In this document: positions 16,946-53,954 of the stretch, in pieces
Layout of the letters: the number at the start of each line of letters is the position of its first letter
How positions within the stretch are numbered: the stretch's first letter is position 1
IMG/VR virus record: IMGVR_UViG_3300043571_000425
Origin: a virus
Strand: one strand, 5' to 3'
Length of the DNA: 64,000 nucleotides
The notes under the pieces: generated by a model
Databases searched by the model: none
What the model saw: only the letters and a program-made list of their open reading frames with translations
What the model was told of the DNA's origin: nothing
Translations under genes and position numbers: made by a program

Positions 16946-17017
16946 AGCGAGTAGGTAGGATTTGAACCTCCGATCATGGGTTGGACACCCACAGCTTTAC
17001 CACTCAGCTATACTCGC
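16946..17017 (-). tRNA. tRNA-like gene, anticodon UCC (Gly) by position, non-canonical
   Basis: The reverse complement reads GCGAGTA-TA-GCTG-AGTGGTA-AAGC-T-GTGGG-TGTCCAA-CCCAT-GATC-GGAGG-TTCAAAT-CCT(A)CC-TACTCGC-T. It has a perfect 7-bp acceptor stem, GG in the D loop and a TTCAAAT T loop. However position 33 is G, not U, the T stem carries a bulged A, and no CCA is encoded. Confidence 0.6.
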
Positions 17018-20393: not shown

Positions 20394-21005
20394 ATGATTT
20401 TAAACGATGCACAGATAACGGAATTGGCAGCTAGTGGGATGATCAACCCATTTCAGCCTCAATTAATTAGAGAGGTTAGTATCTGCGGTCATGAACTAAT
20501 GGAGAATCAGATCAGGAAAGTGATTAGTTATGGGCTGTCGTCTTACGGTTACGATATCCGATTAAGCCCTAAAGAATTTAAAGTTTTTAAGCATATTCCG
20601 GGTACAATTGTTAACCCTAAGAACTTTAATTCTGGTAATTTAGAGTCAGTAGAATTACAGCGTGATCAATGGGGTGATTTTTTCATAATCCCCGCTCATT
20701 CTTACGGGCTGGGTGTGGCAATTGAAAGGTTAGAAATGCCGTCAGATTTAACAGCTATTTGTGTGGGAAAATCAACTTATGCGAGGGCTGGTTTAATAGC
20801 TAATTTAACACCTGTAGAAAGTTCGTGGCGAGGGAATTTAACTATCGAGATATCCAATTCATCAAGTGCAGATTGTCGAGTGTATGCGAATGAAGGTATT
20901 TGTCAACTGCTATTTTTCAAAGGTGAACCATGCGCTGTTTCTTATGAAGATAGGCATGGTAAATATCAAGATCAACCTGAGCAAATTGTACTAGCAAAAG
21001 TTTAA
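20394..21005 (+). CDS. dcd: dCTP deaminase
   Basis: MILNDAQI...INPF, SSYGYDIRL, GKSTYARAGLIANLTPVESSWRGNLTIEISN and GICQLLFF are the conserved Dcd blocks. Confidence 0.9.
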   Translation: MILNDAQITELAASGMINPFQPQLIREVSICGHELMENQIRKVISYGLSSYGYDIRLSPKEFKVFKHIPGTIVNPKNFNSGNLESVELQRDQWGDFFIIPAHSYGLGVAIERLEMPSDLTAICVGKSTYARAGLIANLTPVESSWRGNLTIEISNSSSADCRVYANEGICQLLFFKGEPCAVSYEDRHGKYQDQPEQIVLAKV

Positions 21006-21006
21006 T

Positions 21007-21231
21007 ATGAATCACGATCATCCATCTCATTACAACCAAGGCAATATAGAGTGTATTGACGCGATCGCCTCCGCACTTTCTCCCCAAGAATTAGACGGTT
21101 TTGTTCGCGGTAATGTAATGAAATATATATGGCGATCGCCTCACAAAAATAAAGTTGAGGACTTGAAAAAAGCCCTATGGTATTTGAGTTGGTATATATC
21201 TAGGTTGGAGAAAGATGATGCAACTAATTAA
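21007..21231 (+). CDS. DUF3310-family protein
   Basis: HYNQGNIECIDAI...GFVRGNVMKYIWRSPHKNKVEDLKKALWYL matches the DUF3310 signature (HY..g.iE.id.i...gf..gN..KY..R...K....dl.Ka..Yl). Confidence 0.65.
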   Translation: MNHDHPSHYNQGNIECIDAIASALSPQELDGFVRGNVMKYIWRSPHKNKVEDLKKALWYLSWYISRLEKDDATN

Positions 21232-21952
21232 AGATTCTCGATTTCAAGTAGTTATTGATAAAGATGCGAGTTCCCCAAACCCCCAAGTCGCTATATGGAA
21301 AGGTCAGCATAGATGTGTTGCCGAAAAGTTTTTACCCGACGATAAGACACCTACCCCAGAAAGCTGTGGAGAAGCCGTCATCAAATATCAGTTAGCAGGT
21401 GACAGGGGGCATTATTCAGTTCTCAGAAAAGCCTTTGTTAGTTTCCACTGTTTAGGATTTCCCCATAGTGTCGTGAGTCAAATCACAAGACATCAAGATT
21501 CAGCTTTTCTTGTTCAGTCAATGCGATATACAGGACAAAGAATTGTTGATTGTGCTGAGGGTGATATTCCTATTGAGGATGTTTTCTATTTCCGTCCTGT
21601 GGGGAGTTATTTTGACAGGAAAGGGAAAAAATATGAATACACGGAAGAGAGAAGAGAGAAGCAAAAAAGAAGCAGATTGTTAGCAGCAAAAGAATATGCT
21701 AATGAAATGAGTCTGGGATATTCTGAGGAGCATTCCAGAGATGATTTACCTTATGGATTCCGCCAAGATTTTGACCTTAGTGGAGACTTGCAAGCTGTTT
21801 GGCATTTGCTTGACCAGCGCACCAAAGCCGATTCTCAAATAGAAGTCAGAACACTTGCATGGATGATATTAGATTGTTTGAAAGAATTTACTCCTGAGCT
21901 TACCCAATGGTATTTAGAAAATCGTGCGGGTAAAGCTAGACTTGCTCCTTGA
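21215..21952 (+). CDS. thyX: ThyX-like flavin-dependent thymidylate synthase (divergent motif)
   Basis: ITRHQDSAFLVQSMRY aligns with the ThyX signature RHRxxSxxxQSxRY, but reads RHQ-DSA in place of RHR-xxS. The gene overlaps the preceding gene by 17 nt. Confidence 0.6.
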   Translation: MMQLIKDSRFQVVIDKDASSPNPQVAIWKGQHRCVAEKFLPDDKTPTPESCGEAVIKYQLAGDRGHYSVLRKAFVSFHCLGFPHSVVSQITRHQDSAFLVQSMRYTGQRIVDCAEGDIPIEDVFYFRPVGSYFDRKGKKYEYTEERREKQKRSRLLAAKEYANEMSLGYSEEHSRDDLPYGFRQDFDLSGDLQAVWHLLDQRTKADSQIEVRTLAWMILDCLKEFTPELTQWYLENRAGKARLAP

Positions 21953-22157: not shown

Positions 22158-23075
22158 ATGAAAAATCAAATTATTCACGGTGATTGTTTTGAGGTTTTAA
22201 AGAGTATTTCTGATAAATCAATTGATGCTGTAATCACAGATCCGCCTTATAAGTATTTAAAGCATAAACTAGAAACTAACTGGGATGAGAAACTATTTTT
22301 CATTGAGGTTTTACGCATCCTCAAAAAAGATAGTTTCTTAGTATTTTTCGGCAGGGGTGAATCTTGGTTTAGGTGGAATTATCTTTGTCAGGAATTAGGC
22401 TTTAATTTTAAAGAAGAGATTATATGGGACAAGGTTAGAACTTCTAATCCTATGTGTACGATGCCACGTTCTCATGAAAATATTGCTATTTATACAAATG
22501 GTAAAGGTACATTAAACGAAGCTAGGATAGATAAGCTGGAATATGATTCAATCGCAAACCCAAAAGCTATGGTTAATGATTTCAAGAGAATGCTGGCAAC
22601 TATTAAAAATATTAATTCATGGGATGATTTTATATTATTTAAAAGCGGTACTCTAGGTAGTTCTGATGTTATTAGGCGCAGTGAGGTTACGATACAAGGC
22701 GGAATGAAAAAATGTGATAGAGGTTCAGGAACTTTTAAATCTCACGACAAAGGGCGGAGAATACCCTCTATTTTCAGATGTTTGAACGATTACTATAATT
22801 ACGTACACCCCACACAAAAGCCATTATTACTTATACAGAAATTAATAGAATTGACCACTGTTTCAGGTGCTATGATCTTAGATCCCTTTTGTGGTAGTGG
22901 TACAACTGCCGTAGCCTGTAAAGAACTTGGTAGAAATTATATTTGCATTGAGAAAGAATTAGAATATTATCAAATAGCTTGTCAACGCATAAACCAACCT
23001 ATTGAACCTGAAAAAGAGGTTGTTCCGGTGGTTGAGGAGTTGCCGAAAGTTGAGCAATTATCACTATTTGGTTAA
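22158..23075 (+). CDS. DNA methyltransferase (N6-A/N4-C, beta class)
   Basis: Motif IV VITDPPY lies near the N-terminus. The C-terminal HPTQKPLLLIQKLIELTT...ILDPFCGSGTTAVACKELGRNYICIE carries motif I (FxGSGTT). This is the typical permuted N6_N4_Mtase order. Confidence 0.9.
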   Translation: MKNQIIHGDCFEVLKSISDKSIDAVITDPPYKYLKHKLETNWDEKLFFIEVLRILKKDSFLVFFGRGESWFRWNYLCQELGFNFKEEIIWDKVRTSNPMCTMPRSHENIAIYTNGKGTLNEARIDKLEYDSIANPKAMVNDFKRMLATIKNINSWDDFILFKSGTLGSSDVIRRSEVTIQGGMKKCDRGSGTFKSHDKGRRIPSIFRCLNDYYNYVHPTQKPLLLIQKLIELTTVSGAMILDPFCGSGTTAVACKELGRNYICIEKELEYYQIACQRINQPIEPEKEVVPVVEELPKVEQLSLFG

Positions 23076-23291: not shown

Positions 23292-23320
23292 TTGATAATC
23301 TTATTAAAATAGCCTATAAT
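23292..23320 (+). promoter_or_regulatory. near-consensus sigma70 promoter upstream of the Csf-like operon
   Basis: TTGATA (23292-23297), exactly 17 nt, TATAAT (23315-23320), within a 270-nt non-coding gap. Confidence 0.6.
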
Positions 23321-23344: not shown

Positions 23345-24304
23345 GTGGCCCTGAACCCACCAAGACGTTTTTTATCAGTCCGCTCAATCTGCTCATTTTT
23401 CACCCGCACAGATCAAGAAATATATATGAATAATAACGTAAAACTCCCAGAATTGCAAGGTACAACCGTACTCACCCGCCAACAAATTTTAGACACCCGT
23501 GAAATGGCGTTTGGCGTGGCGGACAAGATGAGCGATCGCCAACTTCTAACCCACATGGGGATATTAAACTCATTGATATGGCGGGCTGCTACTGACTATC
23601 AGGCTATACGCAAGGATAACGACGGCGTGGAAAGGATTATTCCTGAGAACTGGAATAATTTATTAGCCTGTTCGGTTCAGGGTGAGGTACAAATAACAAT
23701 CCCTATTGACTGGACTGACAAGTATTTAAAAACCTATTGGACGGGCGCGTTCCATGACCAGAAAACCGTGAGAACCTACCGGAAACAGCAGTTATCATGG
23801 GGACTATTTTATTTTGATATTGAGAACCGTCCCAAGGGCGCTATGTGGGGAGCATTCACAGGCACTCCCAACCAAGGAATAGCTACACCGCCCGTATTAG
23901 AACGGGTTGACGTTGCCAGAATATTAATTTTTTATCAGATGTTTGATCAAATTAGGCGCTCCAAAATTAACGAAAAACTTAAAAATTCTGAGGATGTAAC
24001 CGCGTTTGACTGTATGCCGGATCATGGCGGTATGGTGATGGTTGAACTCTACAACGCCTTATTTTTTGGTGTCTCAGAGTTTTTTGGGGGTTCTTATGGG
24101 AGTTCCGATATAGTCATCGGGAGCATAGAACCCTTACCAGCGACTAAGGTGATTGTATGGCAGTGGCAGAAGCCGAAGGGACTATTTAGGGCATTATGGG
24201 AACGGATGGTGATTAAGGCTGGATTTGTTGCTAAACAGGCGTTAAAGATTGTCACTCAGATGGTAGTCGAGCCGATGGGAGAATTAGCAGAAGTTCCGTT
24301 TTAA
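23345..24304 (+). CDS. hypothetical protein, first gene of the Csf-like operon
   Basis: The ORF begins at GTG 23345, with an alternative start at ATG 23426 (MNNNVKL). No motif recognised. It shares strand and promoter with 24351-28155. Confidence 0.5.
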   Translation: MALNPPRRFLSVRSICSFFTRTDQEIYMNNNVKLPELQGTTVLTRQQILDTREMAFGVADKMSDRQLLTHMGILNSLIWRAATDYQAIRKDNDGVERIIPENWNNLLACSVQGEVQITIPIDWTDKYLKTYWTGAFHDQKTVRTYRKQQLSWGLFYFDIENRPKGAMWGAFTGTPNQGIATPPVLERVDVARILIFYQMFDQIRRSKINEKLKNSEDVTAFDCMPDHGGMVMVELYNALFFGVSEFFGGSYGSSDIVIGSIEPLPATKVIVWQWQKPKGLFRALWERMVIKAGFVAKQALKIVTQMVVEPMGELAEVPF

Positions 24305-24350: not shown

Positions 24351-24869
24351 ATGAACAATAATAATTATGGAATGTCTCAAACACGAGACAAATGTTATGG
24401 CGTAGCCGCTTGTCTTACCTATTGGGCTTTCAAGTGCCGTGACAGAAAACGTAGTCCAGCGATGGGTACTAAAACCTGGACTTACTTGGAATCAAGTATT
24501 AGAAATTCGGCTGAAATATCAACTAATTTAGAAGATTATTTGCAGCGACTTTGTGATAAACTTTGTTCACAATTACGCCCAATCGAGTTAACAAAAATAA
24601 TTCAGCCAACACAACGGATACTAAGAGTAAATGAAGATGCGACGGAAATCAAGGAACTTCCTGTAGATCAAAACTTAGTATTCATGGGATGGTTGGACTT
24701 ATTGAATGACATAGCTCCTCACGGATTTAGTGAATGGGATGTCTTGGAACTACTGAGAACCAAAGCAGGGATTATTCAAGTAATTTGTAGATTACGGTTT
24801 GAGGAAGACCGCAGTTTAGGGTTAGATGAACCAGAAGAGTTTATAGAAGTTGAGGTGACAAATGTTTGA
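24351..24869 (+). CDS. small protein in the cas11 position (Cas11-like, unverified)
   Basis: 172 aa, immediately upstream of and overlapping (ATGTTTGA) the Cas7-like gene. The assignment is by position and size only. Confidence 0.3.
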   Translation: MNNNNYGMSQTRDKCYGVAACLTYWAFKCRDRKRSPAMGTKTWTYLESSIRNSAEISTNLEDYLQRLCDKLCSQLRPIELTKIIQPTQRILRVNEDATEIKELPVDQNLVFMGWLDLLNDIAPHGFSEWDVLELLRTKAGIIQVICRLRFEEDRSLGLDEPEEFIEVEVTNV

Positions 24870-25992
24870 TAATTACGATGTTTTTGACCGTGAAAGATTG
24901 ACATTGCATTGTGTAATTACGACACAAACGCCACTTTCACATATTGGGGAAGTGTCGGGAAATGTGAGCAATTTAAAAACATTAAAATTACTGGATTTTG
25001 AAGGTAATCCCAGAAGTGTTTTCACCTATTCTGGAAATGCCTTGAGAAATGGTTTGTTACGGCGTGTAGGTGTAGCTGCGGCGTTAACTGAATTAGGATT
25101 ACAGGTAAATCCTGATACACACCATACAATGTTTGCAGGTGGCAGGATTGATGCCGGTACAGCTTCAGATATGGAACTTGATAAAAAGATCCGGGTTCTA
25201 ATGCCTTGGTTGTCGGTCTTAGGAACTGCTAAACCTGCTAAAGTGTTTGGTTCTAAAGATGCCCAAATGGTGCAAGGTAGGATTAATGTAGGTTCTGCTT
25301 ACTTGGCTTGTTATGAGTCAGCAGAGTACATCTACAATCAGATACCAGCAATATTACCACCGGAAATACAGCCAGCCATTCAGAAGCTAATTGAGGCTAA
25401 AAATAGACTATCTTCAGACCCATTCACCCCTACAAAGGCTGAGGATTTAGATAATTGGAATCAAGTAAAAAGTGATTATTTACCTTTAATTAGAAAGGTA
25501 ATGAAAACTTGGACTGAGTATTTAACGGTTGATCAAACTACCCGCAGAGATGCAACTTTAGATCCTAATTTGATTAAATTTCTGCCAACAGAAGTACAGG
25601 CGCAACTCAAGGGAGATGGTGCAGCTAAAGAGAAAAAATCAGATCAAATGATTGCTTCCGATAGATTAATTATGCCAGGAGCAAAACTATATTCAAGATG
25701 GGACTTGAACTGCACCAAGGTTGAGCAGGGTTGGATTTTTGATACATTACTCAAGTTTGCACAATTTCCATACTTGGGCGGTAAAGGTAATCGTGGCAAT
25801 GGTCGAGTTAGCATGAATTTCTGGTTTAGTTCTGAATCAGAGCGCGGATTGTTGTGGAGTTCTGAAAGTGGAGTTGAGAGCGATAAATTCAATCTAGCAC
25901 ACGCTAAATATAGGGAATATATCAATCAGTATCAACAGTTTTTAAGTGAAGCGAAAACATCAACTGAATTAAGGAGTCTGTTAGGTGGATAA
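24862..25992 (+). CDS. csf2: RAMP protein, Cas7/Csf2-like
   Basis: N-terminal LTLHCVITTQTPLSHIGE, then FTYSGNALRNGLLRR, and a C-terminal glycine-rich loop FPYLGGKGNRGNGRVSM. These are classic Cas7-type RAMP features. Confidence 0.65.
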   Translation: MFDNYDVFDRERLTLHCVITTQTPLSHIGEVSGNVSNLKTLKLLDFEGNPRSVFTYSGNALRNGLLRRVGVAAALTELGLQVNPDTHHTMFAGGRIDAGTASDMELDKKIRVLMPWLSVLGTAKPAKVFGSKDAQMVQGRINVGSAYLACYESAEYIYNQIPAILPPEIQPAIQKLIEAKNRLSSDPFTPTKAEDLDNWNQVKSDYLPLIRKVMKTWTEYLTVDQTTRRDATLDPNLIKFLPTEVQAQLKGDGAAKEKKSDQMIASDRLIMPGAKLYSRWDLNCTKVEQGWIFDTLLKFAQFPYLGGKGNRGNGRVSMNFWFSSESERGLLWSSESGVESDKFNLAHAKYREYINQYQQFLSEAKTSTELRSLLGG

Positions 25993-26674
25993 TCTAAGAA
26001 TTACAGCCCATTTAGCGACATCTTTAGCAGCTTATGACAATTGGAGTCCATCGTTAGAAGGGATTTTAGTTTATAAACTCTTGGAAGAAAATAATCTATT
26101 TTCACCTAATCCCACGCCTAGTCAAGTAGCAGATGTCCAGACTTTTGTTGAGCAGAATTTACTACTAAAACAGGGGATAATTAAATCAGAGAAATATTGG
26201 TGTGTGAGTTCACCTTATTATGTTTTGCAAGGTGAAGCTACAGACAAATATAGAAAGCGGTGGGATAATCACGACAATAATTTAGATTGGGGTAAGCGCA
26301 AACCTAAATTTCTAACAGGTGAAGGTGCGGAAAAGTCCTATGATTTACCTCTTTACACAAGGTCAATTAATTCTATTTCTTGGTTTGCTGTAGGCGATAA
26401 GTCAAAAATTAAGGATTTATTGCAAACTGTTACTCACATTCAGAAAAAACGTAGTTACGGAAATGGTGAAGTTAGGGAATGGGAAATAGGGATAATTTAC
26501 AATGATTACCATCTGTGGCGTGACAGTAAATTAATGCGCCCAATTCCTGTTAGATTACTTGATCAGAAAATAGATAATCCTCAGATGATCTGGGGGTGGA
26601 GAAGCCCCGCGTGGTTAGCTGCAAATAAGGAGTTATGCTATATGCCAAAGGATAATGTGATTTATGCTAAGTAA
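25985..26674 (+). CDS. csf3: RAMP protein, Cas5/Csf3-like
   Basis: GTG start overlapping the csf2 stop (GTGGATAA). N-terminal ITAHLATSLAAYDNWSPSLEGILVYKL and glycine loop KKRSYGNGEVREWEI. 229 aa. Confidence 0.55.
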   Translation: MDNLRITAHLATSLAAYDNWSPSLEGILVYKLLEENNLFSPNPTPSQVADVQTFVEQNLLLKQGIIKSEKYWCVSSPYYVLQGEATDKYRKRWDNHDNNLDWGKRKPKFLTGEGAEKSYDLPLYTRSINSISWFAVGDKSKIKDLLQTVTHIQKKRSYGNGEVREWEIGIIYNDYHLWRDSKLMRPIPVRLLDQKIDNPQMIWGWRSPAWLAANKELCYMPKDNVIYAK

Positions 26675-27410
26675 CGGATCTGGCGTTCAATATCCCTGGT
26701 TAAAAAAGAAAATAATCAGGGCAAAAGACTCAATTAAAACCTGGTTAGAGCAATGCGATTATCAGGTTTACGCCAGCATTTCGGGCGGTAAAGATAGCTT
26801 GGTGATGTCGCATTTAATTAGGCAAATTTATCCTGATTGTCCTTTGGTATGGGTAAATCAGGGTTCGCTTGCCGAATGGGACGATTGCATTGAACTATTA
26901 GGGTTTTTGAAAACTCAAGGCTGGAATATTATTGAACTTTGTCCAGTTCGTGATCTGTGGCATTTATATCTTGATTATGGCGTTCCTCTTGAAGGAACAA
27001 TGGACACAAAAGCCGATAAAATAATCAACCAAAAATTGATTTATGACCCTCTTAATGAGTACCAAGAACTGAATCAAATTAAGGGTTATGCGTGGGGAAT
27101 ACGTAAGCAAGAAAGCAGAAACCGCGCATTTTATCTCAACAAATATGGTGAAGTGCATACGCTCAAAAACGGGTTGATTTGTTGCTCACCCGTGGCATTT
27201 TGGACTACTCAAAATATCTGGGAATATATTGATATGCACTCGTTAAAATACCCTGCTATTTATGATGTTGATAGAATGACAGTTAGGAATGGATGCCCAA
27301 TCGGTACAACAGGTGCTAACTGGGGAAGATTAGCAGAGTTAAGAAAGCATTACCCAGATATTTATAATCAATTTGCTACTAAATTTCCACAGGTATCAAC
27401 CTATGTCTAA
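26664..27410 (+). CDS. cysH: PAPS reductase family (CysH-like / PP-loop) protein
   Basis: PP-loop YASISGGKDSLVMSHL and WGIRKQESRNR, as in the PF01507 family. It overlaps both neighbouring genes. Confidence 0.8.
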   Translation: MLSNGSGVQYPWLKKKIIRAKDSIKTWLEQCDYQVYASISGGKDSLVMSHLIRQIYPDCPLVWVNQGSLAEWDDCIELLGFLKTQGWNIIELCPVRDLWHLYLDYGVPLEGTMDTKADKIINQKLIYDPLNEYQELNQIKGYAWGIRKQESRNRAFYLNKYGEVHTLKNGLICCSPVAFWTTQNIWEYIDMHSLKYPAIYDVDRMTVRNGCPIGTTGANWGRLAELRKHYPDIYNQFATKFPQVSTYV

Positions 27411-28155
27411 TTGCTACCTTTGCGCTAAACCAGGCAACAACCCATTGGAATTATCCAATACATTTACCATGCACTCATCAGCTAAATGCCCGGATTCTAA
27501 AGTGCTTTGTAATCGCTGTCACTCTACAATTTCCGGTAATCAAAAGCAGCTTTGGTACTGGAATGAAGGTAAAAATAAATGGTCAAAGCTGTGGGGACGT
27601 TCTTTGTCCAGGGTTTATCAGGGTGATAAGCTAATTGCGCCTGTCGTTGAAGGTGAATATACAGAAGGCAAGGATACTTTTTCAATAGTTAAAAACTTGC
27701 TGACTAGGGTGGGAATTAGGCAATACTTGTTAAATCCACCTGAACCGCCTTTTACTATAGCCATAGCAGAATCGGGGCAAAAACATATTATCCCTTGGGC
27801 GTTAGAAGGTCAAAACAGAGATTTATTCCCTGTGCAATTTGAACTCGACACTATTTATATTGACAATAGATTTAGAGAATATTTGGAAATTTACGAACAA
27901 TTGATGGGGTTGGGCTTTAGTAAGTCTGAAATTGATTCTGGAGATTATCGAAGCGATCGCCTAATGAAAGTTTTTGATCAATATGGGGAACTTGAGGAAC
28001 GGATAGCGCGTATTAGGGGAACGAGATTAATGCAATTAATTAGCTATGTTGCCCAAGTGCAAGACGCGCCGCCAATTACGGAAGTAGTGCAAATTCCCGT
28101 AATGCCTGTTTCACCAAAAACACTTGAGAAGCCACTGCAATTATCTTTGTTTTAG
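27403..28155 (+). CDS. csf1: Cys-rich protein, Csf1-like (putative large subunit)
   Basis: The preferred start ATG 27403 (MSNCYLCAKPG) overlaps the cysH-like stop (ATGTCTAA). The N-terminus has CxxC-x20-C-x6-CxxC, as I recall for Csf1 zinc fingers. 250 aa. Confidence 0.45.
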   Translation: MSNCYLCAKPGNNPLELSNTFTMHSSAKCPDSKVLCNRCHSTISGNQKQLWYWNEGKNKWSKLWGRSLSRVYQGDKLIAPVVEGEYTEGKDTFSIVKNLLTRVGIRQYLLNPPEPPFTIAIAESGQKHIIPWALEGQNRDLFPVQFELDTIYIDNRFREYLEIYEQLMGLGFSKSEIDSGDYRSDRLMKVFDQYGELEERIARIRGTRLMQLISYVAQVQDAPPITEVVQIPVMPVSPKTLEKPLQLSLF

Positions 28156-28173: not shown

Positions 28174-28617
28174 ATGTCCAAACTATTCATCCCCAATTTC
28201 ATCATTTACGCCACGCTCCCAACCATAGAAGCGACTTGTGGAGACTATGAAGTTGACCCGGAAACCGGAAACCCGATTGCAGTCAATACCACCCTGGAGA
28301 TTAAGGCATGGATGCAAGGCTATGATCAGCTACGGCAGGGGCGAACCACGGCTAAACCGGAACATCCAAGCGTAGATTTTAACACCGTTTATTTGTCAGG
28401 TTATGCCGTCACACCTAAAGCCATACCCGCCCGGACATTGTTGGCGCGTGAAAAATATAACGCCAAATACATAGAACCAATTACAGGAACGGAACAGCAG
28501 GGAACTTTCGTACTAGCACCTCAAGTAAACGAACAACGCCCTAGAGTTGCTAAGGCGTTGGCAAAAAGATTGGGGATGGAACTGCAAGGAACTTTTGAAT
28601 TTGGTTATGGAAGTTGA
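28174..28617 (+). CDS. hypothetical protein
   Basis: 147-aa ORF, 18 nt after the Csf1-like gene. It may be the last gene of the operon or a virion protein. Confidence 0.5.
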   Translation: MSKLFIPNFIIYATLPTIEATCGDYEVDPETGNPIAVNTTLEIKAWMQGYDQLRQGRTTAKPEHPSVDFNTVYLSGYAVTPKAIPARTLLAREKYNAKYIEPITGTEQQGTFVLAPQVNEQRPRVAKALAKRLGMELQGTFEFGYGS

Positions 28618-28853: not shown

Positions 28854-28886
28854 CCCCTGTAATTTGCGTTACAGGGGTTTTGTTTT
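28854..28886. promoter_or_regulatory. intercistronic hairpin (type B module, copy 1)
   Basis: CCCCTGTAA (28854-28862)/TTACAGGGG (28869-28877), then TTTTGTTTT on the plus strand. It sits between a stop codon (28885) and the next minus-strand start (28823). A paralogous copy lies at 29637-29670. Confidence 0.5.
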
Positions 28887-34324: not shown

Positions 34325-35500
34325 TTAAGGGAATCCACTTTTGATGAATACTGGTAGGATTTTCTTGACAATTTGAGGTAGTTCTTTTTGACAGTGGTTC
34401 ATGTTTAACGGCGGATCAAATTTTCGGATATAACCTATTTCCCATTCCTCCAGGTCGTTTGCATCAGTCCAGGTGAAATAAGCTATATGTTGTATTTTGT
34501 GTTCTTTAAATTCTGATATTTTTTCGTGTTTAGCATGGCGATTTCTTAGGCTAGTAGTTGATATACCAACGTACCATACACGACTAGCAGCGTCTAAAGC
34601 AAAGTAAATACCGGGTGAATCTGGCAGATTATTGTGATCTCCCAATAGCGTTTTTGCTAGTTTCTTGATAGAAAAACTAGGGATAAATTGATTGTCGTCT
34701 GCTTCTATTTCTACTGTATTTTGTGGTTCAGTCTTAGGACTATTTGGCAAAAAAGATGCTAACTCGCTATCTTTAATATATTCTTGATAAATTTCTGGCT
34801 TAACAAAAAACATATTCCAGTCTTCATCCATGCAATGAATCATCCTATCTGCTATTTCTCTTATTAAACACATCCATTTTTTATTTACGTCTTTATTGTC
34901 TGAATCACAAAAATCATTTGCGCTTTTTGGGTAATTTTCCTCAAAAAAGCTTCTTTGTTCTTCCTCTGTCTCCCATCCGTAATAGCTAATATCCTTTTCC
35001 TGTTGGAAAAAATCATTTAATACTGCTGTTTCCCAGATGTGATTCAAGACTTCAGGACGATCCTCAGAGAAAACCGAGAATTGAATTTTACATTGATAAG
35101 ATAGCCAGTATAAGGGTGCTAACGCAAGTGCCTCAGAAGCAATACCTACAGGTGAAAGATTGTATCCCAATGCGGGTAGAACTGATTTGGGATTAGTCAG
35201 AATATCACGGCAATGCCTAATCGCTATTGGCTTCAGGTGCGCCGGAAAACCAAAATCGAAGCCACTTATGCCCGTCATTAGCGAATTAACGCACTGATCT
35301 TTTTGATAATCTGTGAAATCGACATATTGACTGTATTCTCCTTCCCAAAAACATTCTTCTTCTATATCAAAATTCTCAAGGAACAAATCACAAGCCAACA
35401 TATAAAGCTTAGATTCTATTCCTTTTAGTAGTAGTTTTTCCTCGCCAGTATGGTAGTAACCTGTTTCAAGTGCTGTTTGTTTTTCAATTACGATAGTCAT
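34325..35500 (-). CDS. protein with C-terminal GIY-YIG nuclease domain
   Basis: The C-terminus PGIYFALDAASRVWYVGISTTSLRNRHAKHE...EEWEIGYIRKFDPPLN fits GIY-x(10)-YVG...R...H...E...N. Confidence 0.6.
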   Translation of the reverse strand: MTIVIEKQTALETGYYHTGEEKLLLKGIESKLYMLACDLFLENFDIEEECFWEGEYSQYVDFTDYQKDQCVNSLMTGISGFDFGFPAHLKPIAIRHCRDILTNPKSVLPALGYNLSPVGIASEALALAPLYWLSYQCKIQFSVFSEDRPEVLNHIWETAVLNDFFQQEKDISYYGWETEEEQRSFFEENYPKSANDFCDSDNKDVNKKWMCLIREIADRMIHCMDEDWNMFFVKPEIYQEYIKDSELASFLPNSPKTEPQNTVEIEADDNQFIPSFSIKKLAKTLLGDHNNLPDSPGIYFALDAASRVWYVGISTTSLRNRHAKHEKISEFKEHKIQHIAYFTWTDANDLEEWEIGYIRKFDPPLNMNHCQKELPQIVKKILPVFIKSGFP

Positions 35501-35554
35501 AAAATCCTTCCTTCGCTTTAATGTATTGTTCAGTTTCTTGATGAGCGTAATAGA

Positions 35555-36292
35555 TTAATCTGCTGTAGTTATTTCATCCGTTGCGCCTACCTTCTTATAA
35601 GGACGGTATCTAACACCGTCTTGTTTTTTAAGATTGCAATCAGAACAGAGTATTTGATAGTCAGCTTGATTGTCATGGAAAAGTTGCCATGCTTCAATAA
35701 ACGCAGTAAAGGCTTTTCTGGTTTTCTTGAACCGATAAGTGTGGATTGAGTTACATCTTTCTATTGTTGGATATTTTTCTGGTTTGTAAAATAACTCAAA
35801 CTGATTGACAATAGAAATAAAGCTTTTGCTTTTATGGTCAATTTGCAGCTTCACATTAGAACCACAACAGGAACACGCTGAATTATTTGCAAAAAGAGAC
35901 TCGCCAGCTTTTTGTACTTGATAAAATACAGATTCCCTGTAACTTTCAAGTCTACTTCTATTCTCAATTGAGTTAATAACTTTGTCTCTGTTTTTGATAC
36001 TGCGCGGGGAACATTTTTTGTAGGAAAAATCCTGTTCATTGCCTTTTGCATCAACAATAACAAAGCAGCAATATTGACTGACTGCTGGAAATTCAGGATA
36101 CCCTACTTTAATTGTAGAAACGCCGTCTCGCTTCTTTTTCCGCTTGTGAGGGTGAAATTCTAGTAAATCTTTTGTAAACTTGAGATCGTTGCCAGTGAGT
36201 ATTCTTGCACCTTTCGCAAGCATTGATCTAGCGTGATCTTTGACATCCTCCCACGTATTGAATGACTGGTTTCCTAACTGGTATTTATTCAT
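35555..36292 (-). CDS. HNH endonuclease-like protein
   Basis: CSCCGSNVKLQIDHKS...HDNQADYQILCSDCNLKK fits CxxC...DH...N...LCxxCN.KK. Confidence 0.55.
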   Translation of the reverse strand: MNKYQLGNQSFNTWEDVKDHARSMLAKGARILTGNDLKFTKDLLEFHPHKRKKKRDGVSTIKVGYPEFPAVSQYCCFVIVDAKGNEQDFSYKKCSPRSIKNRDKVINSIENRSRLESYRESVFYQVQKAGESLFANNSACSCCGSNVKLQIDHKSKSFISIVNQFELFYKPEKYPTIERCNSIHTYRFKKTRKAFTAFIEAWQLFHDNQADYQILCSDCNLKKQDGVRYRPYKKVGATDEITTAD

Positions 36293-36354
36293 CTTGATTT
36301 TCCTGTTTTATAAATGTGCGATCGCTATCCCACCCACCCAGCCAGCGATCTAAA

Positions 36355-37032
36355 TTACTTGAAAACTTCAATCAGAATTGATTCAGGGTACAACCCGACA
36401 TAGCCAAAGCGCGGATCATAAATCCGTTCAATGTCTATTTCCCGTTTACGGCATAGAAGGGATGCTTGCCTACCTTTTTGACTTGCAACTTTAGCAGACA
36501 CTTCCAGCCCTTGTTTAACCGCAAATCCCAAAACAGTGTATTTGTTGCCACTAGGAGCAATGTAACGCCCTTGCTCACATTCAACAGCCGCTAAACGTGC
36601 TTCAGCTAGTTTTAATTGCTGTTCCTGCTCAATCATGCGACGTTCCTGTTCCGCCATTTGATTGACCATGACGGCTAAAGCCTGAATAGTGGTCATAGGT
36701 TGAGGTTGCTGCAATTGCTTACGGGCATTAGAGAAAGCCTTGACTAAGTTCATCTTGCACTGAATGACTCGCTCCGTATTCCGGGAAAGTGTCATCACAA
36801 ACAAAACTTGATCTTCTGTCAACCAAACGAAATTTTCTGATGTAGCACCGATTTCTCTTTTCTTCACTTCGTTTTCAAAACGGAGTGAGCCAAACCCTTG
36901 CTCTATCTGGGCTTGATACTTCTTAATGATATTTCTCATCCAGTCGGAGTGAGTAACATTCAATTCACTGGCAACCAATCGGGAATCTACGACGAGTACC
37001 CCGTTTTGCTCAAAAACTGCTAAATTAGACAT
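36355..37032 (-). CDS. Rha-family phage regulatory protein
   Basis: LVVDSRLVASELNVTHSDWMRNIIKKYQ...FVWLTEDQVLFVMTLSRNTERVIQCKMNLVKAF matches the Phage_pRha pattern. Confidence 0.65.
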   Translation of the reverse strand: MSNLAVFEQNGVLVVDSRLVASELNVTHSDWMRNIIKKYQAQIEQGFGSLRFENEVKKREIGATSENFVWLTEDQVLFVMTLSRNTERVIQCKMNLVKAFSNARKQLQQPQPMTTIQALAVMVNQMAEQERRMIEQEQQLKLAEARLAAVECEQGRYIAPSGNKYTVLGFAVKQGLEVSAKVASQKGRQASLLCRKREIDIERIYDPRFGYVGLYPESILIEVFK

Positions 37033-37257
37033 AGTAGAGTAACCCGTCCTTTCCGGGTGAAAAACTAACCATTGAAACCACCGGAATACTGCAATATTCC
37101 TGCGTGGTATGGTTACGATAATTTTATCATGTTTTCAATAGTCTTATTAATTCTTCAATAACTTAGGATACAATATTATCCAGTCGCGTGATGGTGTTGG
37201 TAGCACCGATTCACCACTGGCTGTAGGTCTTGTACACCCACATTGATATTATTCCCA

Positions 37258-39126
37258 ATGAAAACTATTAAAATCAAGGTCAAACTTCTTGCTGAACAGG
37301 CGCAATCATGCGATCGCTACCTAGAAGAATTGACATGGCTATGGAATCAGGTATTGGCTAATCAATTGCATAACCATTGCATCACCTGGTACAACTGGGC
37401 TGGTAAGTTGAGCGCAGATTTAGCTAAGGCGACGGAAAAGTTAGAGAAGCTAAAACCGGAACAACAGCAGCTTGTTAGGAACTACTACCGCAGCAAAGAC
37501 AAGCCAAAACTCAACAAAAAAGAACAGGAATTAGTTGCCAAATTTGATATATTTTCCCGGTGGTTGCCGTTTGACTTAGAAAATATTATTCCCGTACCTT
37601 TGCGAGTTGGCAACAGTGGCTACGAGGGCTTATCGTGCCAGATTGCTACAGGCGGAAGTTACTGGAAACGGGACGATAATTTTAATATTCCAATCAAAAC
37701 CAAAAAGGGGATTATTCACGTCAAAGGGTCTAAATTAGTTAAGGGTGATTACCCCTGGAAACGAATACAAATAATGCCACATCAATATAAAACTTTCCCC
37801 AGTGGTAAGTTTGAGGGGAGGGAATTAATAGATTTAATGAAGTTTGATAATTTGAACGGGTTAAACGGGTTAAGAGCGATGCAAAATCTACCTGATTTAT
37901 CCGTTTCCTCGCACTACGTCGGAGGCTTGTTAGAGTTTTTCAAACAGTCATGGTTAGCATTTTTAGACCCCAAAAGGATAAACAGCAGGAAGCCAAAATT
38001 CAAAAAAGATGCTGATAAGATTAGCACTTTATTTAATAAGCAATGTCCACCAAATAAGATAGACATAAAGAATAATTCAGTTGAAATTACTGGATTTGGC
38101 AATTTAATCGTTACTGATAGAAGTTGGGGGGAAAGACTGAACCTAGATAGCAGTCTTCCTCGGACGTATATGCTAACCAAAAAAGCATCTGGCTACTATA
38201 TCAATATTGTCCTTGCTCACCCATTGCAAGAAGAAAAAGCGGTTTTAACAAAGAAATTACCCAAGGTTAAAAAGGAGCTTGGAGAAGACAGCCAAGAGTA
38301 CGAAGATATTAAGTCTAAAATCAAGTTTATTGAACAGCAAATCAAGGATTCGTTAATCGTAGTGGGAAAGAATTTAAGTGTAGGGATTGACCCTGGAGTA
38401 CAGGCTATTGTGGCGACAGATCACGGGGCGTTATTCCTCCCAAATCTAAGCAGGGAAAGAGTGTCAATCCATATAGAGGAACTACAATCAAGGCTTGATA
38501 ACCTTGAATTAATTAATGATAAAAAGTGGAAAGATTCAGGAAGCAAAGGTGCTAGACCTAAGACAAAAAACGAGATTAAGATACAAGATAAAATTACCAG
38601 ATTACATGAACGTGGGGCTAATTCTTCTAATGCCTTTAATCATAAAATGTCAACTAGATTAAGCAGGACTTACGAGCATATAGCATGGGAGGATACCCAG
38701 TTAACCAATCTCCTAAAACAAACAGAAGCTAAAGCATTGCCTGAAGGGGTGGGATATGCTCACAACGGCGCGTCTGCTAAACGGGGTTTAAATTGGATTA
38801 TGAGACAAAGATGCTTGGGTGATTTAAAAGCTAAAACTAAGCAAAAAGTTGAGAACAGAGGCGGTAGTTTTCATGAACCACCTGCTAACTACAGTTCTCA
38901 ACTATGCCATTGTTGTCATCAGAAAGGTGAGCGATTATCACAGTATGAGTTTGTCTGCAAAAACTCTGAATGTGAGTTATTTGAACAGGTGCAACAAGCT
39001 GACACCAATGCGGCTAGGAATCACAAACATAATAGTAGTTTTGAACTAGGAGAAGTCAAATATCACAACACTAGATTGGTTTACCAAAAACCCAAGAGAT
39101 TTAAAAAGAAACGCTTGACAAAGTAG
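37258..39126 (+). CDS. TnpB-like compact Cas12 (type V) nuclease candidate with intact RuvC triad and zinc ribbon
   Basis: N-terminal TnpB-style KTIKIKVKLLAEQAQSCDRYLEELTWLWNQV. RuvC-I is GIDPGV (D codon 38389-38391), RuvC-II is IAWEDT (E codon 38689-38691), and RuvC-III is QQADTNAARN (D codon 39001-39003). A CHCCH...CKNSEC zinc ribbon lies between RuvC-II and RuvC-III. A CRISPR array lies 350 nt downstream on the same strand. Confidence 0.75.
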   Translation: MKTIKIKVKLLAEQAQSCDRYLEELTWLWNQVLANQLHNHCITWYNWAGKLSADLAKATEKLEKLKPEQQQLVRNYYRSKDKPKLNKKEQELVAKFDIFSRWLPFDLENIIPVPLRVGNSGYEGLSCQIATGGSYWKRDDNFNIPIKTKKGIIHVKGSKLVKGDYPWKRIQIMPHQYKTFPSGKFEGRELIDLMKFDNLNGLNGLRAMQNLPDLSVSSHYVGGLLEFFKQSWLAFLDPKRINSRKPKFKKDADKISTLFNKQCPPNKIDIKNNSVEITGFGNLIVTDRSWGERLNLDSSLPRTYMLTKKASGYYINIVLAHPLQEEKAVLTKKLPKVKKELGEDSQEYEDIKSKIKFIEQQIKDSLIVVGKNLSVGIDPGVQAIVATDHGALFLPNLSRERVSIHIEELQSRLDNLELINDKKWKDSGSKGARPKTKNEIKIQDKITRLHERGANSSNAFNHKMSTRLSRTYEHIAWEDTQLTNLLKQTEAKALPEGVGYAHNGASAKRGLNWIMRQRCLGDLKAKTKQKVENRGGSFHEPPANYSSQLCHCCHQKGERLSQYEFVCKNSECELFEQVQQADTNAARNHKHNSSFELGEVKYHNTRLVYQKPKRFKKKRLTK

Positions 39127-39475
39127 ATGGTTTTAGTTATTATCAATTTACCGCAGTTTGGACGGGATGACTGGTTCTGTCAGTCTATGACTTGATGATT
39201 TTACGATCAAAAAGTAAGGGAGATGGTGACTACTCCCATAGACCAGCCGGAACTATGGCTGGCAATCCTCAGAAGGGATTAATCATTTTGCAATCATCGA
39301 AGCAGCGTGGCTAAAACAAACCCGCGCGCAAATCCAGAACCTAGACAAGCGAAGGGATTAGAGCTATCTTTGCAGAATATCAAAAGGGATTTAAGCGGCT
39401 GTAATGGACTTTTTGGATTAGCTCGCGCAAACAGCCTCTAGGATTCAAGTATATCAAGGGTTTCAGGTTGCCGCA
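39127..39475 (+). ncRNA. putative tracrRNA/leader region containing an anti-repeat
   Basis: 39263-39293 (CAATCCTCAGAAGGGATTAATCATTTTGCAA) matches the reverse complement of the CRISPR repeat at 28 of 33 positions, and two of the mismatches keep G-U pairing. A second fragment, GAAGGGATTAGAGC, lies at 39351-39364. Local hairpins occur at 39218-39236 and 39243-39262. The transcript ends are unknown. Confidence 0.45.
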
Positions 39476-40433
39476 CTTGCAGGATGACTAATCCCTTCTG
39501 AGGGATTGAAACAAGTACAATTGATGGAAATAAAATATTAAGCATAGACTTGCAGGATGACTAATCCCTTCTGAGGGATTGAAACAATTTTGAGCTTGAC
39601 ATAATCATCGTTATGTCACTTGCAGGATGACTAATCCCTTCTGAGGGATTGAAACGTCATGCTTATCAGATGAACTTCACCCAAATACGCTTGCAGGATG
39701 ACTAATCCCTTCTGAGGGATTGAAACAACTTGCTCCTGCACTGCCTTGCAGGATGACTAATCCCCTTGCAGGATGACTAATCCCTTCTGAGGGATTGAAA
39801 CAGGCGTGAGTTTGGCGTGACGTGGCGTAAATCTCTTGCAGGATGACTAATCCCTTCTGAGGGATTGAAACCTTAGATGTTAAGACTGTCAGAAAATATC
39901 AAGGTAGACTTGCAGGATGACTAATCCCTTCTGAGGGATTGAAACGTCGGTTCTTCATTAATTTGCTTGCAGGATGACTAATCCCTTCTGAGGGATTGAA
40001 ACTACCGTTAAAGTGTTCATGAATCTTTTGGGGATGACTTGCAGGATGACTAATCCCTTCTGAGGGATTGAAACAGTGTGTGCAGTCAAATACTTAGATA
40101 TTCCATCTGGATTGCAACTTGCAGGATGACTAATCCCTTCTGAGGGATTGAAACAACTTATGACCCTAACATTGCTTGCAGGATGACTAATCCCTTCTGA
40201 GGGATTGAAACCGACTGATAGCTGATTTTTCCAAATAAACGGAGTCCTTGCAGGATGACTAATCCCTTCTGAGGGATTGAAACTGTACTCTTTTGGCAAT
40301 TGTGGTTAACATCTTCCTACGCTCCTTGCAGGATGACTAATCCCTTCTGAGGGATTGAAACTTCTAATATCTGCGAGCGATATTTATTAAAACCATCTTG
40401 CAGGATGACTAATCCCTTCTGAGGGATTGAAAC
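39476..40433 (+). CRISPR. CRISPR array: 14 identical 37-nt repeats plus one 20-nt truncated repeat, 13 spacers
   Basis: The repeat is CTTGCAGGATGACTAATCCCTTCTGAGGGATTGAAAC. Repeat starts are 39476, 39549, 39619, 39690, 39765, 39835, 39909, 39966, 40038, 40118, 40175, 40247, 40325 and 40397. Spacer lengths are 36, 33, 34, 18, 33, 37, 20, 35, 43, 20, 35, 41 and 35 nt. The truncated repeat lies at 39745-39764. Confidence 0.97.
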
Positions 40434-40477
40434 GAGGCGTGGCAACTATAAGGAAAATCCCTTACCAGTTGCCAGTT

Positions 40478-53159: not shown

Positions 53160-53954
53160 TTACTCCCCAAACCACAATTGGCGGGAATCATCGAGAATCT
53201 TCTTATCCAATTCTTCAAGGTAGTCGCGGCGTAATTCTTGGTTTTCACGGACGCTCGACACATTTTCCCAGGCATAATCAGGAATTTTGATTGACTCAAG
53301 ATGCTTGTTTAGCTTTTTGTAGTCAGGATTACCACTTTTAGTCATGAACCCGTACCGTTTGCACAGTTCCGTTTTGTTGACTGTTGATCCGTCATTAATT
53401 ATTTGATCATCTTGGATTATGCGATCACGGTATTCAATTTCCTTGACCGTTGAATAGCCTAAAACTTTTTGCTGTACGAGTTCAGGGAGTGCCGTTGCTA
53501 CGTATTGTCTAAGTTGTAGCAACTTTAATTCCGCCTGAACTTTGTCATTTTCCAGTTTTGCCAATTCCAGTTTTAGTTTCATTTCTTCAACGGGGTTTAT
53601 CTCAATTGAAGTTGAGCCAGATGCCATTAGATTGAAAATATGCGCGTTACACCAAACATGGAATGACGGGCTAATCCACTGAGCCAAGTGCAATGCTATT
53701 AATGGATGACCCCATGTACCTTGTGTAAATTCTGCGGAATTTCCTTTTTTGATTACTAAAAGTTCCGATATTGTGATCCCAATATCACTCGAAACTGCCT
53801 CTAGGTAAGACTTTGTGGACTTGAGATTATTCCAGTTCCCTAGTAGCTTTCCATTCGCTTGGCACATTTGGGTTAAGTTGACAAACCCATCTGCGCGTCG
53901 TTGAATTAATTGCCCGTTGTAATCAAAATTCTGTATCATAGTCATTATGTTCAC
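53160..53954 (-). CDS. KilA-N domain protein
   Basis: FDYNGQLIQRRADGFVNLTQMCQANGKLLGNWNNLKSTKSYLEAVS...GTWGHPLIALHLAQWISPSFHVW is the KilA-N signature. The C-terminus is coiled coil. Confidence 0.8.
   Translation of the reverse strand: MNIMTMIQNFDYNGQLIQRRADGFVNLTQMCQANGKLLGNWNNLKSTKSYLEAVSSDIGITISELLVIKKGNSAEFTQGTWGHPLIALHLAQWISPSFHVWCNAHIFNLMASGSTSIEINPVEEMKLKLELAKLENDKVQAELKLLQLRQYVATALPELVQQKVLGYSTVKEIEYRDRIIQDDQIINDGSTVNKTELCKRYGFMTKSGNPDYKKLNKHLESIKIPDYAWENVSSVRENQELRRDYLEELDKKILDDSRQLWFGE

Follow-up and report, generated by a model that had tools for sequence, protein, structure and literature searches.

We analyzed a five-gene operon in a 64,000-nucleotide stretch of viral DNA (IMG/VR record IMGVR_UViG_3300043571_000425; hereafter, the window), which a preliminary description, made from the sequence alone, had taken to be a phage-borne module resembling subtype IV-B of the CRISPR-Cas systems. 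To our knowledge, type IV-B is the sole widespread CRISPR-Cas subtype for which guide RNA, target and role are all still undefined. Five plus-strand open reading frames (ORFs) were found at 24351-28155 at the coordinates claimed for them, and they encode, in this order, a Cas11-like, all-alpha small subunit (24351-24869; 172 aa), the type IV Cas7 protein Csf2 (24862-25992; 376 aa, a ‘long’ form that contains a helical insertion), the type IV Cas5 protein Csf3 (25985-26674; 229 aa), a CysH-like PP-loop ATP pyrophosphatase of the CasCysH type (26664-27410; 248 aa), and the type IV large subunit Csf1 (27403-28155; 250 aa), whose C-terminal residues QLSLF are encoded by nt 28138-28152. The overlaps reported between consecutive genes are exact (ATGTTTGA at 24862-24869 between cas11-like and csf2, GTGGATAA at 25985-25992 between csf2 and csf3, the 11-nt ATGCTAAGTAA at 26664-26674 between csf3 and cysH-like, and ATGTCTAA at 27403-27410 between cysH-like and csf1), and the motifs listed with them (TPLSHIGE, SGNALRNGLLRR, YLGGKGNRGNGRV, SPSLEGILVY, KKRSYGNGEV, SGGKDS, GIRKQESRNR, and an N-terminal CxxC...CxxC) are all present in the translations. 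The resulting order, cas11-csf2-csf3-cysH-csf1, in which csf1 stands last and cysH lies within the operon, is unusual for IV-B.

Type IV profiles of PADLOC matched all four Cas proteins (E 2e-6 to 1.5e-40), and the assignment to a type IV-B-like Csf module with a CysH-like gene held. Csf2 matched the profile Csf2_0_IV (E 1.1e-36), and its best sequence match in the PDB was the Csf2 of the solved IV-B complex 7JHY (E 6e-4, with both repeat-associated mysterious protein (RAMP) motifs aligned). When its AlphaFold2 model (predicted local distance difference test (pLDDT) 72.8; predicted template modeling score (pTM) 0.72) was searched with Foldseek, each of the top 34 matches was a chain from a type IV-A effector complex (8RC2_D the best, at E 8.8e-10), followed by 7JHY (E 8e-4) and type III Csm3 proteins. 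Csf3 matched Csf3_0_IV (E 1.5e-40), and an identical protein on a public contig has a precomputed match to Pfam PF27782 (Csf3). Csf1 matched Csf1_0_IV (E 6e-23), and most of its homologs bear Pfam PF27781 (Csf1); it has an N-terminal four-cysteine zinc-ribbon-like motif (C4, C7, C36 and C39, invariant among homologs), then the core of a type IV large subunit, and then a variable, Pro-rich linker that leads to the QLSLF end. The NCBIfam csf1, csf2 and csf3 models gave weak matches below their cut-offs, and the identities are therefore based on the PADLOC profiles and on structure. The similarity to Cas7 and Cas5 RAMPs, on which the preliminary description had let its reading stand or fall, is thus significant for both Csf2 and Csf3 by profile, and for Csf2 by structure as well; given such strong type IV profile and fold matches, we rejected a virion operon or a pure DNA-modification operon as the primary identity.

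The Cas11-like protein is the weakest of the gene calls. It matched the typeIV_Cas11 profiles of PADLOC (E 2e-6, 2.9e-4 and 6e-3), and in hhalign its family profile aligned end to end over 130 columns (E 2e-4, 47% probability) with the small protein of another phage locus (L054), itself an unambiguous type IV Cas11 (PADLOC 4e-35). Its AlphaFold2 model is a confident helical bundle (pLDDT 80), for which Foldseek gave no significant fold match in the PDB, and the family profile found no match among PDB sequences. Since the fold search was uninformative, we regard the support for this call, which also draws on its position immediately 5' of csf2 and its all-alpha character, as moderate. By homology to the components of 7JHY, Csf2 and the Cas11-like protein may form a ribonucleoprotein filament.

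The CysH-like protein matched Pfam PAPS_reduct (E 4.5e-15). Among its homologs the SGGKDS PP-loop and an R..ES..R motif are invariant, and the conserved C-terminal catalytic cysteine is absent; a PP-loop (SGGxDS/T) without that cysteine is what sets CRISPR-associated CysH (CasCysH) apart from true 3'-phosphoadenosine-5'-phosphosulfate (PAPS) reductases and DndC (PMC8175902), and the protein of the window fits this description. When 54 window ORFs (every main ORF of 110 aa or more, apart from the tape-measure ORF, for which the scan was against Pfam only) were compared with PADLOC, none matched Cas6, Cas1/2/4, DinG, RecD, Cas3 or Cas10, in line with the reported lack of cas6, dinG and adaptation genes, nor did this search find a Cas10-like HD protein, a helicase, or an effector nuclease belonging to the module. 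With the Csf and CysH-like set present and no excluded gene found, the module falls within the definition of subtype IV-B. The additional claim that it has no array is a borderline one: it applies to the window alone, under the 10-kb association rule of PMC7038947, as the nearest array starts 11.3 kb after csf1, just beyond that limit, and it did not extend to relatives, in which the operon can lie 0-1 kb from an array or a Cas12p gene, and overall 0-7 kb from arrays.

The module is carried by a tailed phage, as had been proposed: genes for a portal, a head protein, a large terminase (TerL), and a tape measure, as well as a sigma factor, are present in the window. A cyanobacterial host was likewise supported, with relatives binned with metagenome-assembled genomes (MAGs) of Dolichospermum and Sphaerospermopsis and with Aphanizomenon phage CL131 as the nearest GenBank phage; this binning and the relationship to CL131 point to a Dolichospermum/Aphanizomenon-type cyanobacterium as the probable host. 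Homologs of the Csf module number in the hundreds in metagenomes and are abundant in those of Dolichospermum type. For Csf2 there are more than 120 cluster representatives from metagenomes (60-98% identity), all unannotated and many in Dolichospermum or Sphaerospermopsis bins. Among genomes of 185,579 species, one per species, there was a single match, on a 4.6-kb contig in a Dolichospermum MAG, so the module appears to be peculiar to free phage genomes, as opposed to prophages or plasmids. Among INPHARED phages, neither the region (megablast) nor Csf2 (tblastn) had a match, and only a neighboring gene, the phrog_34986 gene described below, matched CL131. The order cas11-csf2-csf3-cysH-csf1 is intact and co-linear in 16 IMG/VR viral loci, down to 63% Csf2 identity. 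It is firmly established that this is a maintained, phage-borne operon of type IV-B class.

The array that had been noted about 11 kb downstream exists (39476-40433, plus strand; 14 identical 37-nt repeats, where chance would give 0, with 13 spacers of 20-43 nt), but it does not stand alone, as it belongs to an adjoining Cas12p gene with a tracrRNA (trans-activating CRISPR RNA) anti-repeat between the two. This cas12p (‘Cas12 hacker’; 37243-39126, plus strand) encodes a type V effector of 627 aa with ~80% identity over 615 residues to PDB 9JFS (phmmer against 9JFS/9JG3, E 0, 1145 bits; PADLOC Cas12u2, E 3.8e-57), in which the RuvC residues D383, E483 and D587 and the thioredoxin-binding Cys132 are invariant. 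In the intergenic region between cas12p and the array (39127-39475), the anti-repeat of a putative tracrRNA (39263-39293, plus strand) agrees with the reverse complement of the repeat at 28/32 positions, with a score of 42 against a null maximum of 24. Cas12p has been described as a phage-encoded, tracrRNA-dependent double-stranded DNA nuclease with a GTN protospacer-adjacent motif (PAM) that is activated by host thioredoxin (bioRxiv 10.1101/2025.01.20.633832). We dropped a thioredoxin link between the CysH-like protein and Cas12p, since the cysteine through which canonical PAPS reductase works with thioredoxin is missing from the CysH-like protein.

The Csf operon and this type V locus recur together. 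In 9/9 Cas12p-encoding IMG/VR contigs of at least 30 kb, the Csf operon is found on the same strand, upstream of cas12p; cas12p follows csf1 after 9 kb of unrelated genes in the window, and after 6 kb in related loci L028/L029, 5 kb in L030, 4.4 kb in L024, 2.4 kb in L031, and 0.9 kb in L032/L033. Other arrays and effectors also stand beside the operon. A two-repeat mini-array begins 4 bp after csf1 in L035, and a seven-repeat array 0.9 kb after csf1 in L030. In L033 (14188-20480), cas12p and its 11-repeat array are followed by an abutting 28-repeat array with a different, unstructured repeat (CTTGCAATTAACTCAGTTCCCCAAGTCCGGTTTCACC) and by a convergent second TnpB/Cas12-like gene, an arrangement suggestive of two tail-to-tail type V systems beside the Csf operon. 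Two more distant, phage-like contigs carry rearranged Csf+CysH operons together with Cas6 sequences: L052 (602-14708; 32% Csf2 identity) has, besides a full-length Cas6 (4e-35), an array of four repeats, an HNH protein, and a C-terminal fragment of a Cas12, and L050 (7049-11916; 38% Csf2 identity) has the C-terminal half of a Cas6 inside the operon. By their sequences, both are candidate members of a rare, Cas6-bearing class of IV-B-like variants. An independent precedent comes from an Actinomyces plasmid, on which IV-B stands beside an inactivated Cas12b3 (V-B3) and a mini-array (PMC12669027, Extended Data Fig. 7). A recurrent genomic partnership of the Csf operon with Cas12p, tracrRNA and array is thus firmly established, and the linkage data favor a functional, or at least a selective, link.

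Some variation within the operon was seen along the way. A second CysH-like subfamily (238-243 aa, 23-30% identity, with SWGKDS or SWGTDS in place of SGGKDS) occupies the same operon position in L030 (13364-14080), L031 (11806-12522), and L037 (4088-4819), such that the accessory enzyme is apparently swappable while the Csf genes stay. L037 (1393-8665) also holds extra tandem csf3-cysH-csf1 sets of unequal divergence along with partial cas11 and csf2 copies, and the csf1 of L036 has an in-frame stop.

The repeat of the window folds into an 8-bp hairpin followed by GAAAC, and it is 29/37 identical to a repeat that lies beside Cas10 and Csx1 (type III) in a cyanobacterial MAG, the two having the same stem and the same 3' tag, ATTGAAAC. 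The suggestion that the repeats are Cas6-compatible thus finds some support, in that the match is to a class 1-like repeat; the hairpin is not kept in the arrays of relatives. The array turns over quickly: three relatives with Cas12p and Csf2 93-99% identical to those of the window (L041, L044 and L043) have arrays of 3 to 20 repeats with 0 spacers in common with it, and this, with no adaptation gene detected in the window, suggests that spacers are acquired in trans. No protospacer was found for the window spacers in the window itself, for the array in INPHARED (distant mode), for 99 unique spacers from phage arrays in all loci collected here, or for exact 24-mers of three window spacers in IMG/VR. 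We also considered that the array might be a copy of host arrays and rejected this, as the repeat core occurred in one Dolichospermum MAG contig only, which is probably phage DNA; elsewhere, the core was found in Anaerolineae, Dactylococcopsis, and Halothece arrays. The array has irregularities at 39745-39764, 39946-39965, and 40155-40174: within ‘spacer 4’ there is a truncated half-repeat of 20 nt, and two spacers measure just 20 nt against 33-43 nt for the others.

Csf1 ends in QLSLF after a hypervariable linker rich in Pro, Glu and Lys, and QL[SD]LF is the bacterial beta-clamp-binding consensus (PMC12867686). Only one other protein of the window has the motif at its C-terminus (0.04 expected; P(>=2) = 0.0015), namely an N6/N4 DNA methyltransferase encoded upstream of the operon (22158-23075, plus strand; Pfam N6_N4_Mtase, E 1e-36) that ends in EQLSLFG (motif at nt 23055-23069). 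The same restriction to Csf1 and DNA methyltransferases, here of several subfamilies, holds across the related loci; divergent methyltransferases in these phages (30-37% identical) were seen to end in QQLSLF or GQLVLF. Among Csf1 cluster representatives, 44/120 are tailed, and 31 of these 44 end in Q[LM]x[LM]F (22 in exactly QLSLF), with most others near-variants such as QLTLL or QLALW. The remaining 76/120 are short forms, 75 of which lack the motif and most of which lack the tail altogether. The motif persists at 32-38% Csf2 identity, as QLALF in L050 and QLSLF in L052, and is absent from the Csf1 of L048 and of the siphophage locus L054. We found no report of a type IV Cas protein with such a motif in the searchable literature. 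That Csf1 has a conserved clamp-type tail is firmly established, and because the pentapeptide is conserved on a linker that is not, and is common to an enzyme that acts on newly replicated DNA, the tail is best read as a putative clamp-docking peptide.

Compared with the IV-B system of plasmids (Mycobacterium sp. JS623, PDB 7JHY), the phage module has the same five protein families, including a PP-loop CysH-like protein without the catalytic cysteine, is likewise carried by a mobile element, and likewise comes without DinG/RecD, Cas6, adaptation genes and nuclease; it differs in its gene order, in the length of Csf2 (376 aa vs. ~300), in the QLSLF tail of Csf1, in being confined to cyanobacterial phages, and in its consistent linkage to a type V array locus. 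Phage-borne IV-B is not new in itself, as IV-B has been published on prophages (PMC7038947) and on an archaeal virus with a mini-array (PMC10848311), and as our locus L054 is a further example, with canonical gene order and no array, in an unrelated siphophage. The archaeal case, the IV-B of the Bathyarchaeia ‘Fuxiviridae’, also combines IV-B effectors and a CysH-like gene with a CRISPR array on a viral genome, and its authors proposed that virus-encoded CRISPR RNA (crRNA) is used in conflict with the host or between mobile genetic elements (PMC10848311); that array, however, is a two-repeat mini-array inside the locus of an archaeal virus with Cas4 and no reported clamp motif, whereas here a bacterial tailed phage has a 14-repeat array with its own Cas12p and tracrRNA. 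Three things seem to be new: an abundant clade of cyanophages whose operon is rearranged and whose Csf2 is long, the consistent pairing with Cas12p and its array, and the clamp-type tail of Csf1. The window shares with the published Cas12p (PDB 9JFS; bioRxiv 10.1101/2025.01.20.633832) the intact RuvC and thioredoxin-binding residues, the layout of anti-repeat and then array, and the phage origin; type IV, Csf and cyanobacteria are unmentioned in that preprint, which states the hosts to be unknown, and the upstream IV-B operon and likely host described here supply the missing genomic and host context for this recently solved nuclease.

Taken together, we are close to certain that the window holds a functional IV-B-class operon of a tailed phage of heterocystous, bloom-forming cyanobacteria, set in a ‘CRISPR island’ with Cas12p, a tracrRNA and a fast-evolving array. 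As to what the operon does, we tentatively put forward a model in which a nuclease-free Csf ribonucleoprotein, guided by crRNA from the array and docked on the clamp, works alongside Cas12p while the CysH-like enzyme modifies or blocks the target; we infer the RNA loading, the clamp binding, the chemistry of the CysH-like enzyme, and the target. Csf2, Cas11, Csf3 and Csf1 would assemble on a small RNA into a nuclease-free filament similar to Cascade or Csm complexes. The guide in this phage lineage would most plausibly be a crRNA of the phage’s own array, whose 3' repeat tag ATTGAAAC is of class 1 type, processed by a host Cas6 or through a Cas12p/tracrRNA/RNase III route, and in some relatives perhaps by a Cas6 of their own. 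The flexible QLSLF peptide of Csf1 would dock the complex on the beta sliding clamp, thereby placing it at replicating DNA, and we propose that no helicase would therefore be needed to expose target strands. The translationally coupled CysH-like enzyme would then adenylate or otherwise modify the bound nucleic acid or a replisome component, and could thus keep a competing element, or host DNA, from being replicated or expressed while leaving it uncleaved, such that the Csf complex would complement the DNA-cutting Cas12p fed by the same array. Retargeting or sequestration of crRNA and modification of nucleic acid by CysH already exist as hypotheses in the literature (PMC7038947, PMC8175902).

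Two comparisons are consistent with such a model. The modeled Csf2 is nearest to DNA-binding type IV-A complexes (PDB 8RC2, 7XG1), which have no nuclease, bind DNA under the guidance of crRNA, serve in conflicts between mobile elements, and acquire their spacers in trans. Type IV-A systems differ in having a DinG helicase, Cas6/Csf5 and an array of their own and in lacking Cas11 and CysH; in the phage module, the CysH-like enzyme and possibly clamp docking would take the place of the helicase. As in beta-clamp clients (polymerases, Hda, MutS, transposases, and MuC of phage Mu; PMC12867686), an exact consensus pentapeptide stands at the extreme C-terminus of Csf1, following a disordered, variable linker, and binding to DnaN is predicted from this motif.

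It is clear to us that several observations weigh against this model. In the only IV-B complex studied so far, the bound RNA was heterogeneous and not of CRISPR origin, and crRNAs expressed alongside were ignored (PMC7937560, PMC8175902). Cas12p comes with a tracrRNA of its own and functions by itself in E. coli (bioRxiv 10.1101/2025.01.20.633832), and the array therefore needs no second effector. No Cas6 is detectable among the main window ORFs of 110 aa or more, the hairpin seen in the window is not formed by the repeats in the Cas12p arrays of related phages, and none of the spacer searches above yielded a protospacer. The short Csf1 forms, mostly without the motif, imply that clamp docking is not essential to the core function. 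The Csf-bearing loci L034 and L036 have no Cas12p or array within reach, and the linkage counts ignore shared ancestry, so that both modules may occupy one hypervariable slot of a single phage lineage.

A rival account, which we think possible if somewhat unlikely, builds on the last of these points: Csf-CysH would be a guide-free machine that binds non-CRISPR RNA or DNA, for instance in replication-coupled modification or host takeover, and Cas12p would lie near it through a shared hot spot. The module directly follows genes for a dCTP deaminase-like protein, a ThyX-like protein and the methyltransferase with the same QLSLF tail, csf1 and cas12p stand 9 kb apart in the window, with unrelated genes between them, and among relatives this distance varies and Cas12p is missing from some. 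Canonical IV-B modules, that of siphophage L054 included, do without an array, and proteins resembling PAPS reductase take part in DNA modification by systems such as Dnd and BREX type 4 (PMC8175902). Coincidence sits poorly, however, with the same order and strand in 9/9 large Cas12p contigs, with an association that recurs with other array or effector types (L035, L030 and L052) and on an unrelated plasmid (PMC12669027), and with Csf proteins that keep the full set for forming a ribonucleoprotein.

We judged it unlikely that the module is an anti-CRISPR sponge, in which the phage Csf filament would sequester type III or I-D crRNAs of the host, or other guide RNAs, and make no use of them for targeting. 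The idea is already in the literature (PMC7038947, PMC8175902), and it has points in its favor: no nuclease, adaptation gene or Cas6 was detected in the module, the RNA bound by the solved IV-B complex is heterogeneous (PMC7937560), the hosts of CL131 have III-B and I-D systems with several anti-CL131 spacers (PMC6293099), and the class 1-type ATTGAAAC tag is common to the repeat beside type III genes in the cyanobacterial MAG. Sequestration would, however, leave both the invariant, translationally coupled CysH-like enzyme and the conserved clamp-type C-terminus of Csf1 unexplained, and a sponge would also capture the phage’s own Cas12p crRNAs. Furthermore, relatives that add Cas6 and arrays (L052) resemble users of guides, and Pinilla-Redondo et al. 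deemed so complex an anti-CRISPR unlikely (PMC7038947). Finally, that the module is a decaying, non-functional relic of a once complete type IV system, as having no array within 10 kb, no Cas6, helicase or nuclease, and a stop in the csf1 of L036 might suggest, is already disfavored and very improbable in view of intact, tightly coupled ORFs in hundreds of variants at 60-98% identity, in which the catalytic and zinc-binding residues and the terminal peptide motif are invariant.

Whatever probability remains beyond the clamp-docked, array-guided model and these rivals we assign to mechanisms other than those described here. A more specific proposal, which we offer as doubtful, is a hybrid class 1/class 2 island, whose single, quickly changing array would be refilled in trans by adaptation enzymes of the host and would feed both Cas12p, which cuts DNA and depends on thioredoxin, and a Csf-CysH complex without nuclease, tethered by Csf1 to the clamp, that would mark or block replicating target DNA; if true, type IV-B would for the first time have a defined source of guides, a cellular partner and a place where it acts. 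In any case, this phage lineage gives handles that plasmid IV-B does not: a natural array and a characterized type V partner, Cas12p, near the operon; relatives that add Cas6; and a conserved Csf1 peptide of clamp-binding type that would point to the replisome as the site of action. With these, the open question of IV-B function becomes a set of specific experiments. Abundant phages of toxic-bloom cyanobacteria (the Dolichospermum/Aphanizomenon group) thus bear two CRISPR effector modules, which matter for phage-phage and phage-host dynamics in blooms.

With respect to expression, the promoter-like site TTGATA-17-TATAAT downstream of which the operon had been placed (23292-23320, plus strand, 5' of the gene block) exists, with a score of 11/12, but the region holds a chance-level number of such sites (23 vs. 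19.1 ± 4.5 in shuffled sequence); because of this lack of enrichment, its promoter role is merely suggestive. The site does not directly precede the cas11-like gene but rather a sixth gene (23345-24304, or from an alternative start at 23426; plus strand) that belongs to phrog_34986 (PHROG E 2.7e-127; no assigned function) and has 58% identity with gp018 of Aphanizomenon phage CL131, beside which there are no csf genes. This gene is probably co-transcribed with the Csf operon, and a small downstream gene (28174-28617, plus strand; 147 aa, no family match in profile searches) is probably the last of the transcription unit. A hairpin followed by a T-run at 28854-28877 is the only plus-strand terminator-like site between 22900 and 29400. 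We rejected both the phrog_34986 gene and the 147-aa gene as members of the module, since neither is kept beyond the closest relatives.

Directly 5' of the methyltransferase and the Csf operon lie the dCTP deaminase-like and ThyX-like genes (20394-21952), which make up a block for nucleotide metabolism or, possibly, DNA modification. Between the Csf operon and cas12p, accessory genes on the minus strand (34325-37032) encode a GIY-YIG-like protein (weak match), a DUF3223/HamC-like protein (35555-36292; E 4.7e-10 to HamC in PADLOC), and a regulator of the Rha family (36355-37032). The gene for a KilA-N protein lies at 53160-53954, and the sole tRNA noted is a phage-encoded tRNA-Gly (anticodon TCC) at 16946-17017 on the minus strand. 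The tape-measure ORF (40427-52834; 4135 aa), which starts right after the last repeat of the array, matched TMP_3 (E 1e-24), has an M23 peptidase domain, and holds a perfect 66-nt tandem repeat in 2.3 copies (44584-44732).

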